A stretch of 64,000 bases of DNA from a virus. The notes beneath the pieces are model-generated. The model was not told where the DNA came from. It did not search any database and saw only the letters and a list, made by a program, of their open reading frames with translations. Position 1 is the first letter of the stretch, and each line of letters opens with the position of its first letter. The stretch lies in IMG/VR virus record IMGVR_UViG_3300045988_110026; one strand, 5' to 3'. This document shows positions 2,783-63,975 of the stretch, piece after piece. Position numbers and translations under genes: made by a program.

Positions 2783-2985
2783 TGGAAACATTAATCTTAG
2801 ATGTACCTGTATTTTCCGGTAAGATTATTTCTCCTATCTGGATTAAAGCCGTAAGAGATTTTCAATCCAAATCGAAGACAGAAAGAGACTCGTATTGTTT
2901 GATTTGTGGATGTACAGGAGGGTGTAACTTGTGCGATGATATAAGTAAATATAGGATTTCAGAACAATTAAAATATTACAAATAA
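2755..2985 (+). CDS. hypothetical Cys-rich protein
   Basis: 76 aa; CLICGCTGGCNLCDD cluster. Confidence 0.4.
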   Translation: MLYEYFAKIMETLILDVPVFSGKIISPIWIKAVRDFQSKSKTERDSYCLICGCTGGCNLCDDISKYRISEQLKYYK

Positions 2986-3749
2986 TGGAATTAAAAGATT
3001 CAGTCAGGGTAATGACTAAAGAAGAGTTCGAATCAGCAATCAACGAAGATATTAAATTCGTTGAAGGAATTAAGCATTTTTTTAAACATGATGATGCTAC
3101 GAGGGTAATGGAACACGTAAAGTCCGTGTTAGAAGCATCAGTAGACTACCACTACCCGAATCATCCTGAACCTGAAGCAGAACCTGGAGACATGGGAGAG
3201 GTTTCTGATGGATACCATACTTTCAATGAATTGTATCGGTACCGCATGTTGTATAACGCCGCCTTCTTTAATCTATTAGCCAGAAACGGACAGGTTGAAG
3301 TTTGCAAATCAAGAAAGCACAGTGACGGAGAAAAATGCTTCGGTTCTGATGATTGGTTTATTGTGATGGCAATGTTACCTACTGGTCAGGTGTCTAATCA
3401 CTATGAAAGCAAGTACTGGGATTTGTTTGATGTTCCTGAAAGAGAAACCGCTTTCGAATACGACGGCCATACACCAAATGAAGCCGCCGACAGACTTGAA
3501 CAGTATCTTAATCAAAAGAAGTCAGGTTTAACATTTGAAGAAGCTTTTAAATTTCTGAAAGATGGTAATATGATTAAAAGACGTGGATGGAAAAATGAAC
3601 ATCTTGATGCTTTTAGAAGAAGTGGTGTTGGCTCAATTCATATGGAAAAGTCATTGATCATAATTATAAATGAAGAAACACGGAGGCTGACATCGTGGAA
3701 CCCAAGTATAGAAGATATATCGTCGAATGATTGGGAGATTACGAAATGA
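2985..3749 (+). CDS. protein with C-terminal DUF2829 (Tad2-like) domain
   Basis: C-terminus LTFEEAFKFLKDGNMIKRRGWKNEHL...SWNPSIEDISSNDWEI matches the DUF2829 pattern (GxxvrRxgW...W.Ps.eDllaxDWei). The N-terminal ~180 aa are unassigned. Confidence 0.55.
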   Translation: MELKDSVRVMTKEEFESAINEDIKFVEGIKHFFKHDDATRVMEHVKSVLEASVDYHYPNHPEPEAEPGDMGEVSDGYHTFNELYRYRMLYNAAFFNLLARNGQVEVCKSRKHSDGEKCFGSDDWFIVMAMLPTGQVSNHYESKYWDLFDVPERETAFEYDGHTPNEAADRLEQYLNQKKSGLTFEEAFKFLKDGNMIKRRGWKNEHLDAFRRSGVGSIHMEKSLIIIINEETRRLTSWNPSIEDISSNDWEITK

Positions 3750-20553: not shown

Positions 20554-22254
20554 TTATTTTTTGTCATCTCCCTTTAACTTCTTTAAAGTATCTGCAATCG
20601 GAAGCTGATCAATGACTCCCAATGCCGGAGCGACGGTCTTGACAACATTGTTAAGGAAATTACCGGTACTGTTCTGACCGCCGTCAAATACCGTGATATT
20701 TCCGAGGTTAATGTGCTCAAATGCCTTAACCTGTTCTCCGGCAATTTCTTTCCACTGATTAACCATCTTGTACTGGATGGCGATCTGAGGATTGGATTCT
20801 GCTGCTTCCACCATAGCCTTAAATCCGTCGGCTTCTGCCATCAACGATTTTTTCTTACCTTCGGCTTCTGCCTCCAGCTTCATCTGAATAGCTTTTGCCT
20901 CCGCCTCAGCTTTTGCCAAATGTGCTGCTGCCTCTGCCTCAGCCCGGCGTTTGATCTTCTCGGCTTCAGCATCAGCTTGCAAGATAGCCTCTTCCTTCTG
21001 GGTTTCAGCCGGCACAATCTTTTCAGCCTTAAGCGCAGCCTGAACTTTCTTAGCCTTAGCTTCTTCCACTTCTTTGTCGGCAAGCTCTTTTGCTGTTTTT
21101 ACAGCCGCTTCCGATTTAACTTTTTCTTCTCCGGCCTTCTTCTCTGATTGAGCTTTGATGATCTGTAGTTCTGATACTGATACAGCAACCTCCTTCTGGG
21201 CATTGTTGTATCCTATAGACGCATTTTTCTCAGCCTCAGCCTTCTTAATCTGAGCTTCAGAGTCTTGTATTGCTATAGCTGCTTCCTTGTCAGCTTCAGC
21301 CTTATTCTTTCCGACTTCTTCCATTCTTTCAGCCTCGGCTTTATTTACTTCAAGTTCTGCCTTAGATCTTGCGATCGCTGATTCCTTATCAGCCAAAGTC
21401 TTTGCAATAACCGCAGCCCTATCTCTATCGGCTTGAGCTACACCGATCTGTTTTTCTTTATCGGTTAAAGCCAAAGCTACTTCTTTTTCTTTCTTTGTTT
21501 CAGCTACTACCGTTTCCTTTTCTTTTTCAGTATAGGCAATTTGAATCTCTTGCTCTTTTTGGGTATTAGCTACAGCCGTTTCTTTTTCCTTTTGCTGTAC
21601 AGCAATCTTAATAGCACCCAGCTTTTCCTGTTCTTCGATATTAGCCTGTGCTTCGTTCAGGGCCTTACTTTCAGCTTCTTTGCCAAGATTCATGATATAG
21701 CCGGCTTCGTCTCTGATGTCACTGATGTTGATATTTAGGAGGTAAAGGCCTAACTTATTAAGTTCGTTATCAATGTTTTTTCTTGCCTTATCCAAAAACT
21801 CATCCCTGTCAGAATTAAGTTTTTCAATCGTCATTTCAGCAATGATCAAACGCATTTGGCCATAAACAATATCCGTAATAAGATTTTCAGTAGATTCAGT
21901 ATCCATCCCCAAAAGCCTTTCTGCTGCATTCTGCATAATTTCAGGATTTGTGCTGATTGCTACTGTAATAGTAGTAGGTACATCCACTCTGATATTTTGA
22001 GACGACAAAGCACCGGTGAGCCTACAATCTATTTGCATAGGCTCCATAGACAAAATATCATAGCTTTGAATAATAGGCAAGACGAATGCCGCTCCACCAT
22101 GATATAATTTCGCCGATTTCTTTTCCCCACCTGTCTTACCATAAACGACCAAGACTTGGTTAGGCTTACATCTACGATACCTTGATAAGACTCCGATGAT
22201 TGTCAAAATAATCACTACAGCTAAAATAGCTGACACGTACATGATTGTTGTCAT
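20554..22254 (-). CDS. flotillin-like SPFH/band-7 protein (FloT/YuaG-like)
   Basis: N-terminal TM helix, SPFH core (VVYGKTGG...GAAFVLPIIQ...), then ~250 aa of EA/KE-rich flotillin-type coiled-coil repeats. Confidence 0.8.
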   Translation of the reverse strand: MTTIMYVSAILAVVIILTIIGVLSRYRRCKPNQVLVVYGKTGGEKKSAKLYHGGAAFVLPIIQSYDILSMEPMQIDCRLTGALSSQNIRVDVPTTITVAISTNPEIMQNAAERLLGMDTESTENLITDIVYGQMRLIIAEMTIEKLNSDRDEFLDKARKNIDNELNKLGLYLLNINISDIRDEAGYIMNLGKEAESKALNEAQANIEEQEKLGAIKIAVQQKEKETAVANTQKEQEIQIAYTEKEKETVVAETKKEKEVALALTDKEKQIGVAQADRDRAAVIAKTLADKESAIARSKAELEVNKAEAERMEEVGKNKAEADKEAAIAIQDSEAQIKKAEAEKNASIGYNNAQKEVAVSVSELQIIKAQSEKKAGEEKVKSEAAVKTAKELADKEVEEAKAKKVQAALKAEKIVPAETQKEEAILQADAEAEKIKRRAEAEAAAHLAKAEAEAKAIQMKLEAEAEGKKKSLMAEADGFKAMVEAAESNPQIAIQYKMVNQWKEIAGEQVKAFEHINLGNITVFDGGQNSTGNFLNNVVKTVAPALGVIDQLPIADTLKKLKGDDKK

Positions 22255-22286
22255 AACTTTTAAAATTTAATTGTTGATAAAAAAAA

Positions 22287-22781
22287 TTAGATGCTTAATT
22301 CTCCTTCTTCGTATTTTATATTCACCTTGTCACCGTTTTTGTAATTTTTTCCAGACAAGCATCTTACTCTCATTTGCTCTTGTCTTCCATTTTTCGAAAT
22401 ATTTACCATATAATGATTCTTCCCTGATCTAAACACTATCTCCACCTCTCTGCCATTTAAATCTTCCGGACATTCGTACACCATTTCTTGCTTTAACTTA
22501 AGAAGTAACTTATATACATAAAACAAAACGATAAAGAAAAACGACCCTATTACGATCCCTACTAAATGGGAACCCGAAAAGTATGTGGTCCAGCTATATC
22601 CAAGAATAAAATGTGTTATGCCCTTGAATGATATGATGTCCGACAAAGACATGCTTAAATCAGAAGCGCTGTTAATGTCAATATCCGTATCCAGATCAGA
22701 TCCTAATATCGACAACAAAAACTGTATAACAAAAGCAAATGACGCTATTAAAGCCATGCATAAAATTATATCACTTCCCAT
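22287..22781 (-). CDS. NfeD-like membrane protein (YuaF/YqiJ-like)
   Basis: Hydrophobic N-terminal half plus C-terminal beta-rich OB-like segment (GREVEIVFRSGKNHYMVNI...). Sits immediately upstream of the flotillin gene, as in NfeD-SPFH operons. Confidence 0.65.
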   Translation of the reverse strand: MGSDIILCMALIASFAFVIQFLLSILGSDLDTDIDINSASDLSMSLSDIISFKGITHFILGYSWTTYFSGSHLVGIVIGSFFFIVLFYVYKLLLKLKQEMVYECPEDLNGREVEIVFRSGKNHYMVNISKNGRQEQMRVRCLSGKNYKNGDKVNIKYEEGELSI

Positions 22782-23022
22782 ACCCTTCTGTTATTATTTT
22801 GTAAACAAGATCAGTCATATCTTTGATGGTCTCCATATCATAATCAATAATAACAATATTGAATTTTTGTTCCACCATCACATCAAGCTCAATCCGATCA
22901 ATAAAATCTAATCCAAGTTCTTTAAACGACACATCTTCTTCATGAACTATATCTATTTCCGAATTAAGAAACTGAGTAATAATTATATCCTCTATTATCT
23001 TTCTGATTCTTACTTTTTCCAT
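22771..23022 (-). CDS. acyl-carrier-protein-like protein; phosphopantetheine Ser replaced by Phe
   Basis: SFKELGLDFIDRIELDVMVEQKFNIVI aligns with ACP [28 protein letters not shown]. The DSL Ser corresponds to F here. Confidence 0.6.
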   Translation of the reverse strand: MEKVRIRKIIEDIIITQFLNSEIDIVHEEDVSFKELGLDFIDRIELDVMVEQKFNIVIIDYDMETIKDMTDLVYKIITEGYGK

Positions 23023-63886: not shown

Positions 63887-63903
63887 TGTCTTACTTTTTT
63901 TAG

Positions 63904-63975
63904 AGGCTTGTGGCGGAATCGAACCGCCCTACGAGATTTTGCAGATCCCTGACTAAACCACTCATCCAACAAGCC
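63904..63975 (-). tRNA. tRNA-Cys (anticodon GCA), 72 nt, CCA not encoded
   Basis: Hand-folded. Acceptor GGCTTGT/ACAAGCC; D-arm with GG; anticodon stem GGGAT/ATCTC with loop CTGCAAA; T-arm GGCGG-TTCGATT-CCGCC; discriminator T. Confidence 0.75.

Follow-up and report, generated by a model that had tools for sequence, protein, structure and literature searches.

Here we describe a phage-borne flotillin gene and its neighbours in a 64,000-nucleotide (nt) viral sequence, IMG/VR record IMGVR_UViG_3300045988_110026, whose full length is hereafter called the window. Three consecutive open reading frames (ORFs) on the minus strand encode an acyl carrier protein (ACP)-like protein, a small membrane protein resembling NfeD, and a flotillin. 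All three, proposed in a first-pass annotation to form one functional module, are found in the ORF list at the positions collected in Table 1. The ACP-like gene overlaps the gene for the 164 amino acid (aa) NfeD-like protein by 11 nt, and a gap of 32 nt separates the latter from the flotillin. As detailed below, the conserved unit is the NfeD-like and flotillin pair, and purifying selection on this pair is strong.

The locus is 97.3% identical over an 8-kb stretch to phage csAssE-Sib (OR575929.1), a complete 151-kb genome from the human gut, in which the three genes are labelled 'acyl carrier protein', 'transmembrane protein' and 'flotillin family protein'. The flotillin is already annotated publicly in both GenBank and JGI, so that this label is no novelty; what the present analysis adds is the recognition of the 'transmembrane protein' as NfeD-like. 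A scan of IMG/VR detected 162 contigs encoding a flotillin relative, of which 80 were fetched, nearly all at least 98% identical and many 140-155 kb long. The same ordered trio occurs in 79 of these 80, the exception being interrupted by the contig end. A bacterial or chimeric assembly at the locus, named beforehand as what could undo the annotation, is ruled out by the complete phage match together with these 79 loci. The lineage is very common, with 2,433 sequences in a single flotillin cluster at 90% identity.

Table 1. Positions in the window of the genes and intervals discussed in the text.
Feature	Position	Strand	Basis or remark
Flotillin, 566 aa	20554..22254	-	ORF list, Pfam PF01145 and PF15975
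Short NfeD-like partner, 164 aa	22287..22781	-	Three predicted transmembrane helices, acidic loop DLDTDIDIN, C-terminal OB-type beta-barrel at aa ~110-164
ACP-like protein, 83 aa	22771..23022	-	Neighbour outside the conserved pair; DSL-motif Ser40 replaced by Phe
Flotillin coil region, aa ~206-475	20830..21639	-	About 24 hendecad repeats; natural in-frame length polymorphism
Interval lost in deletion variants L171/L172	20815..22446	not applicable	blastn junction mapping
Interval lost in second deletion allele, L173	20829..22408	not applicable	blastn junction mapping
Small ORF, 50 aa	20415..20567	-	C-terminal hydrophobic segment; 14-nt overlap with the flotillin stop

The conserved unit is a pair

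Bacterial genomes, one per species, were scanned for flotillin relatives with a five-member flotillin alignment, giving 80 loci (L090-L169), mostly from Bacteroidota along with other phyla. In all 80, the gene directly upstream of the flotillin, on the same strand, belongs to the 164-aa family, so the proposal that the gene order mirrors bacterial operons holds when tested directly. An ACP homologue within 4 kb of the pair was found in none of them. The pair is further present in L082, L084, L088 and L174, the last in a chromosomal context with housekeeping genes on its flanks. The trio order is kept in the L084 lineage, whose flotillin is 83% identical to that of the window, and no ACP stands beside the pair in the diverged L088, with a DHH protein upstream, or in L082, with an upstream gene on the opposite strand. 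As the partner is present in 80 of 80 bacterial loci and the ACP in 0 of 80, and as L082 and L088 likewise hold the pair only, we conclude that the pair, and not the trio, is the conserved unit. In the sampled bacterial loci the partner family always accompanies this type of flotillin, and synteny constitutes the strongest evidence for the pair.

A true flotillin with a hendecad coil

Profile searches solidly assign the 566-aa product to the true flotillins, that is, to the flotillin subfamily of the SPFH superfamily. Pfam Band_7 (PF01145) matches residues 30-211 with 90 bits against a cut-off of 23.6 (E 2.5e-25), and Flot (PF15975) matches residues 450-559 with 37.9 bits against a cut-off of 27 (E 2.2e-9), both above the gathering score. 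Residues 1-28 are hydrophobic in hydropathy analysis and predicted to form an N-terminal membrane helix; the architecture first ascribed to the protein, a transmembrane segment, an SPFH domain and a long coil, is borne out by these results. Among structures in the PDB, human flotillin-2 (4.9e-23) and flotillin-1 (1.5e-18) are the best matches, and E. coli QmcA is weak (7e-4). The score against the FloT equivalog model, NCBIfam NF058507, is 146.4 bits with a cut-off of 700; the phage protein is related to FloT without being its equivalog. No PHROGs family was found for the window flotillin.

Residues 212-449 consist to 62% of E, A, K and Q, and autocorrelation of the coil gives z = 8.6, 7.5 and 8.8 at lags 11, 22 and 33. 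What had been described as an EA-repeat coiled coil is more precisely a run of hendecads (11-residue repeats). The 11-residue periodicity is common to the bacterial relatives and the flotillin of Vibrio phage KIT04, and a heptad signal is absent in these. The AlphaFold2 (AF2) model of the monomer, built on a shallow alignment of 14 sequences, has a low-confidence pLDDT of 56 and was used for secondary structure only; it places a helix at 2-24, an alpha/beta domain at 26-177 and long helices at 180-504, in agreement with the other evidence.

The coil varies naturally in length. We found 40 flotillin variants with intact termini and in-frame insertions or deletions (indels), almost all inside aa ~200-472, and 21 of the 40 indels are multiples of 11 aa (16 deletions of exactly 11, the others of 22, 33, 33, 88 and 99). 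Variants with full termini span 408 to 573 aa. The length of the predicted cage-wall helix varies in quantised 11-residue steps.

The partner is a short NfeD-like protein

The 164-aa protein does not match the Pfam NfeD family (PF01957) even at E<=10, and NCBIfam and PHROGs gave nothing significant. As the direct searches were empty, the NfeD-like identity rests on the family profile, the fold and synteny. An exhaustive HMMER search yielded 198 cluster representatives, mostly of 150-200 aa. PF01957 matches 2 of 66 full-length family members (best 6e-5), sub-threshold, and among distant bacterial partners 3 of 8, at E 3e-5 to 9e-5 and all below 29.1 bits, the other 5 having no match. In the PDB search the family profile covers the B. 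subtilis YuaF soluble domain over its whole length (E 0.032), and hhalign aligns family and YuaF with E 5.6e-5 and 66% probability. In a search of viral predicted structures, a full-length match of 34% identity is named 'NfeD-like C-terminal domain-containing protein'. Weak as they are, these sequence links to NfeD converge.

The fold points the same way. The AF2 model (66-sequence alignment) reaches a pLDDT of 89 and contains three membrane helices (2-25, 52-69 and 72-96, with which hydropathy agrees) as well as an acidic loop that is disordered; its C-terminal part forms a beta-barrel of OB type similar to NfeD domains of known structure. Neither Pfam nor the model reveals a ClpP-class serine protease domain, and at 164 aa without such a domain the protein is a short form and not a long-form NfeD. 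A Foldseek search of the model against the PDB returned generic OB folds only (E>0.01). This result would suit an unrelated small membrane protein that has a generic OB-type barrel and travels with flotillin genes, a reading that we consider improbable beside the convergent profile links, the fold and the 80 bacterial neighbourhoods. Profile searches failing to recover NfeD had been named beforehand as a refuting outcome, and formally the plain name NfeD, used in the first-pass annotation, is not upheld at the level of the Pfam family; fold, transitive profile links and synteny favour 'NfeD-like'.

Selection and natural deletions

Synonymous sites are saturated between the window and L084 (dS>2 or undefined), so the ratio of non-synonymous to synonymous substitution rates (dN/dS) was computed within the population instead, for the window against 80 close relatives; all these comparisons share the window sequence and are non-independent. 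On average, dN/dS comes to 0.03 in the flotillin gene and 0.06 in its NfeD-like partner, beside 0.04 for the upstream 237-aa gene and 0.05 for the neighbouring exonuclease. The pair is under purifying selection as strong as that on the replication genes. The ACP-like gene, at 0.33, is about ten times less constrained than the pair. Protein identities between the window and L084 are 83% for flotillin, 79% for both DnaB and the exonuclease, 62% for the NfeD-like protein and 37% for the ACP-like protein.

The metagenomes also contain fusion proteins in which the first half of the 164-aa protein runs on into the C-terminus of the flotillin, with differing junctions. Such fusions are in frame in P0021, P0027, P0028, P0031 and P0033, and other deletion alleles (P0009 and P0013) are out of frame. 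Two deletion alleles were confirmed on contigs of 32-76 kb (L171/L172 and L173) with intact flanking synteny. The deletions remove the C-terminal part of the NfeD-like protein together with the greater part of the flotillin, and their junctions show short microhomology. Such variants are rare, being singletons or small clusters, versus the 2,433 sequences of one intact flotillin cluster. The pair is thus an accessory module that is useful to the phage and can nevertheless be lost.

The ACP-like gene is a neighbour

The 83-aa protein is, on profile evidence, an ACP homologue, as had been proposed: it matches PHROG 5934 (ACP) with 5.4e-7 and ACPs in the PDB down to 3.8e-5, with LGLDFIDRIEL aligned to LGADSLDLVEL. 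Pfam PP-binding reaches 18.2 bits, under the cut-off of 20.8, and the NCBIfam ACP models give ~2e-5, all far under their cut-offs. Codon 40 (22903-22905) encodes Phe at the phosphopantetheine-attachment Ser of the DSL motif (LGLDFID), hence the window copy cannot act as a holo-ACP or carrier.

A TCT Ser codon occupies the site in 80 of 81 related loci, the motif not being found in the remaining one, and all large ACP clusters carry Ser there; one ACP variant is present on at least 1,000 contigs. Among the 120 closest ACP homologues, a sample biased towards the query, 116 are 83 aa long and have S in 83 cases, F in 27, Y in 3 and P in 3. The F, Y and P alleles are each one nucleotide change from TCT and recur on several backgrounds, and the variability of the protein is concentrated in helix II (positions 40-48). 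None of the Pfam families for phosphopantetheinyl transferase (PPTase), fatty acid or polyketide synthases, ketosynthase or acyltransferase was detected in 98 further ORFs, a scan limited to the 64-kb window of a 151-kb genome. The deletion variants that were checked keep a Ser-type ACP, so the ACP allele is uncoupled from flotillin status. We conclude that, in this phage clade, the ACP-like gene adjoins the pair without belonging to it and evolves under relaxed constraint.

Genomic context

The three genes sit within a long co-directional array, among replication genes, and their position there reflects only the extent of that array. A sigma-70 promoter and terminator scan, with Bacteroidota promoters outside its scope, returned site counts equal to the shuffled expectation, and the limits of a transcription unit can therefore not be drawn. 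Other products of the window include a 2140-aa virion structural protein, a tail protein, helicases, a primase and nucleases, and OR575929.1 annotates a muzzle protein and a BACON-domain tail protein. The DnaB-like helicase of the window is closest to those of Cellulophaga phages phi17:2 and phi4:1, followed by crAss-like phages. We infer a phage of about 150 kb, similar to csAssE-Sib, that would belong to the crAss-like phages of Bacteroidota.

The 50-aa ORF behind the flotillin is labelled a hypothetical protein in csAssE-Sib; it is intact in L171/L172 and split over two frames in L173. It was considered as a conserved third member and rejected, being undetected beside the bacterial flotillin operons; the ORF is phage-specific.

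Elsewhere in the window a tRNA-Cys (GCA) gene lies at the end (63903-63975, minus strand), and OR575929.1 contains tRNA-Tyr, tRNA-Lys and two TnpB-type genes. A block of plus-strand genes includes one for a 254-aa protein (2985-3749) with a WDGH domain (7.4e-37) and a C-terminal domain similar to Thoeris anti-defense 2 (PF11195, 2.3e-11), a candidate anti-defence gene by its domains.

Relation to known systems

The closest relatives found are the chromosomal operons of Bacteroides and Leyella (for example those of B. thetaiotaomicron, B. xylanisolvens and B. salyersiae; L090-L101), which share the upstream partner family and the hendecad coil. The nearest bacterial flotillins, from Bacteroides spp. 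and Leyella stercorea, are 62-66% identical over the full length, compared with 44-48% in other Bacteroidales and 35-39% in other phyla. The flanking genes of these operons are unrelated to the phage context, where the pair stands in the replication array and is followed by the 50-aa ORF.

B. subtilis yuaF-floT (yuaG), a short NfeD2 with FloT, and E. coli yqiJ-yqiK are among the closest known systems. The phage locus differs from yuaF-floT in being phage-borne, in a flotillin that falls short of the FloT equivalog (146 versus 700 bits) and in a partner unrecognised by Pfam NfeD. Further, downstream of the phage flotillin we did not see an equivalent of yuaI, the third gene of the B. subtilis locus.

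SPFH genes often share operons with NfeD genes, and QmcA-YbbJ forms a cage of 26 heterodimers (PMC13086221); human flotillin assembles into a 44-mer dome (PMC13000311). The SPFH domain and predicted long helical wall that the phage protein shares with QmcA-YbbJ (8z5g), the human flotillin-1/2 dome (9bq2, 9l3g) and HflK/C-FtsH suggest a common cage or dome principle. These SPFH/NfeD cages are solved structures, whereas the phage protein is known from its sequence and a low-confidence monomer model.

SPFH genes as such are already known in phages. SPFH-domain ORFs have been noted since 2006 in the T4-like phages 44RR, Aeh1 and RB43 (PMC1524935). Vibrio phage KIT04 (L086, 2180-3850) has an annotated flotillin family protein with a small 82-aa transmembrane protein ahead of it, which differs from the present partner in having no barrel domain, and the 121-kb faecal phage MT835492 (L087, 2929-4482) carries a flotillin without a partner gene. 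Both of these flotillins branch far away from the window clade and represent independent acquisitions. Among the few phage flotillin loci examined, the complete NfeD-like and flotillin pair was seen only in the present group. Our literature search returned no paper combining crAss-like phages with flotillin and none naming csAssE-Sib. The 'Perkons' paper was considered as a precedent and set aside, as it concerns integration into the host floA gene and not a phage-encoded flotillin.

Origin and proposed role

In the flotillin tree, the window, L084 (83% identical) and L088 (69% identical) form three phage or phage-like lineages inside the Bacteroidaceae group. Since the order of the pair is universal in the sampled bacteria and the phage copies fall inside the Bacteroidaceae clade, the pair was most likely captured as a unit from a Bacteroidaceae host. 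As a separate observation, the flotillins of Bacteroides loci L090-L100 are 94-97% identical across the species compared and their flanking genes differ between most; given these variable flanks the flotillin cassette may be mobile within Bacteroides.

We propose, with a probability of roughly 0.6, that the pair is a host-derived two-gene membrane-scaffold operon that was captured from Bacteroidaceae and retained, helpful but non-essential to the phage. By analogy with known SPFH/NfeD complexes, from which we infer its mechanism, it would act as follows. Expression of the two genes probably goes together with that of the replication genes around them. Flotillin subunits would associate along their long helices and so build a large cage or dome on the host inner membrane, on its cytoplasmic side; the transmembrane helices of the NfeD-like protein would enter the enclosed membrane patch, and its barrel would bind the flotillin. 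The phage pair might in this manner supplement or replace the host flotillin system. The organisation and fluidity of the membrane and its protein complexes could thereby be preserved in the infected cell, allowing a productive infection to continue. In S. aureus, FloA-NfeD stabilises unfolded proteins during stress (PMC13086221).

Several points weigh against this proposal. The tree is a quick neighbour-joining one that carries no support values, and the host, probably Bacteroides or another member of the Bacteroidaceae, is itself assigned indirectly. Between the phage NfeD-like protein and its Bacteroidaceae counterparts identity reaches only 32-38%, therefore either the capture is not recent but ancient, or the partner evolves much faster or has changed role. 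The independent natural deletions on long contigs mean that the module is dispensable. Finally, deletion of SPFH genes in P. aeruginosa gives no pronounced phenotype, and the role of bacterial flotillins is debated (PMC13086221).

The B. subtilis yuaF-floT operon is part of the envelope-stress sigma-W regulon, which is switched on by phage infection, and an auxiliary role of the phage pair in the infected cell would fit with this.

We regard it as unlikely, though worth keeping in mind, that the pair is instead a conflict weapon acting in superinfection exclusion, in blunting membrane-targeting abortive infection (Abi) effectors, or in an HflK/C-like control of an FtsH-type protease. The pair is accessory and lineage-specific: any flotillin match was obtained in 9 of 50,697 GenBank phage records, none of them among the listed related Cellulophaga and crAss-like phages. 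Repeated loss and a cage-wall helix of variable length are what one typically meets in conflict genes, modulation of FtsH and of lambda lysogeny by HflK/C is established (Kihara et al., as relayed in PMC13086221), and the gene with the Tad2-like domain elsewhere in the window would be counter-defence cargo in this very phage. On the other hand, the protein is of the flotillin type and not of the HflK/C type, PADLOC gave no defence-system match for six proteins of the locus, and the hendecad indels equally fit simple repeat slippage. Very strong purifying selection and high conservation are moreover unlike fast-evolving conflict genes.

The proposal of a captured scaffold operon can be extended to a more specific and rather doubtful picture. 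Here the pair would build a phage-specific membrane compartment in Bacteroides by co-assembling with, or replacing, the 66%-identical host flotillin; the hendecad indels would tune the size of the cage; and the compartment would serve a step peculiar to crAss-like phages, such as membrane-anchored replication, virion assembly or prolonged non-lytic carriage. Apo-ACP is toxic in E. coli, and the Ser-less ACP-like allele might in the same picture be an apo-ACP mimic that perturbs host lipid synthesis.

A neutral passenger, brought in by illegitimate recombination and not yet lost, would account for the independent deletion alleles with otherwise intact synteny, and is in our judgement very unlikely: the dN/dS of the pair is as low as or lower than that of the adjacent exonuclease, the pair is kept in at least three diverged phage or phage-like lineages whose synonymous divergence is saturated, and deletion variants are rare beside the intact cluster. 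The original reading of the ACP-like protein, NfeD-like protein and flotillin as a single module, with acyl-ACP for example feeding lipids into a phage microdomain for replication or assembly, could draw on the contiguous genes with overlapping or near-overlapping ends, on the order kept in close relatives and L084 and on the array among replication genes, and is already disfavoured to the point of being hardly credible by the ACP missing from all 80 bacterial loci, L088 and L082, by its dN/dS of 0.33 against 0.03 and 0.06 and its 37% identity between lineages against 83% for flotillin, by the Phe in place of the active Ser and the want of PPTase, ketosynthase and acyltransferase genes in the ORFs scanned, and by the Ser-type ACP of the deletion variants checked.

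Significance

The existence of SPFH genes in phages being known, the present study adds the universal pairing in the sampled bacteria, a likely Bacteroidaceae origin, and purifying selection alongside natural knock-outs. It further adds the quantised hendecad length polymorphism, the serine-less ACP allele and the separation of the ACP-like gene from the module. For annotation, the active serine should be verified before a gene of this phage group is called an ACP, and the partner family, widespread and of ~160-220 aa, represents an annotation gap that Pfam does not recognise and for which NCBIfam offers nothing in the case of the window protein.

The function of bacterial flotillin and NfeD proteins is disputed, partly since knock-outs give weak phenotypes. 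Here, in one of the most frequently assembled phage lineages of the human gut, a complete pair under selection circulates together with natural deletion mutants, and this amounts to a natural experiment on a flotillin scaffold during viral takeover of the cell.

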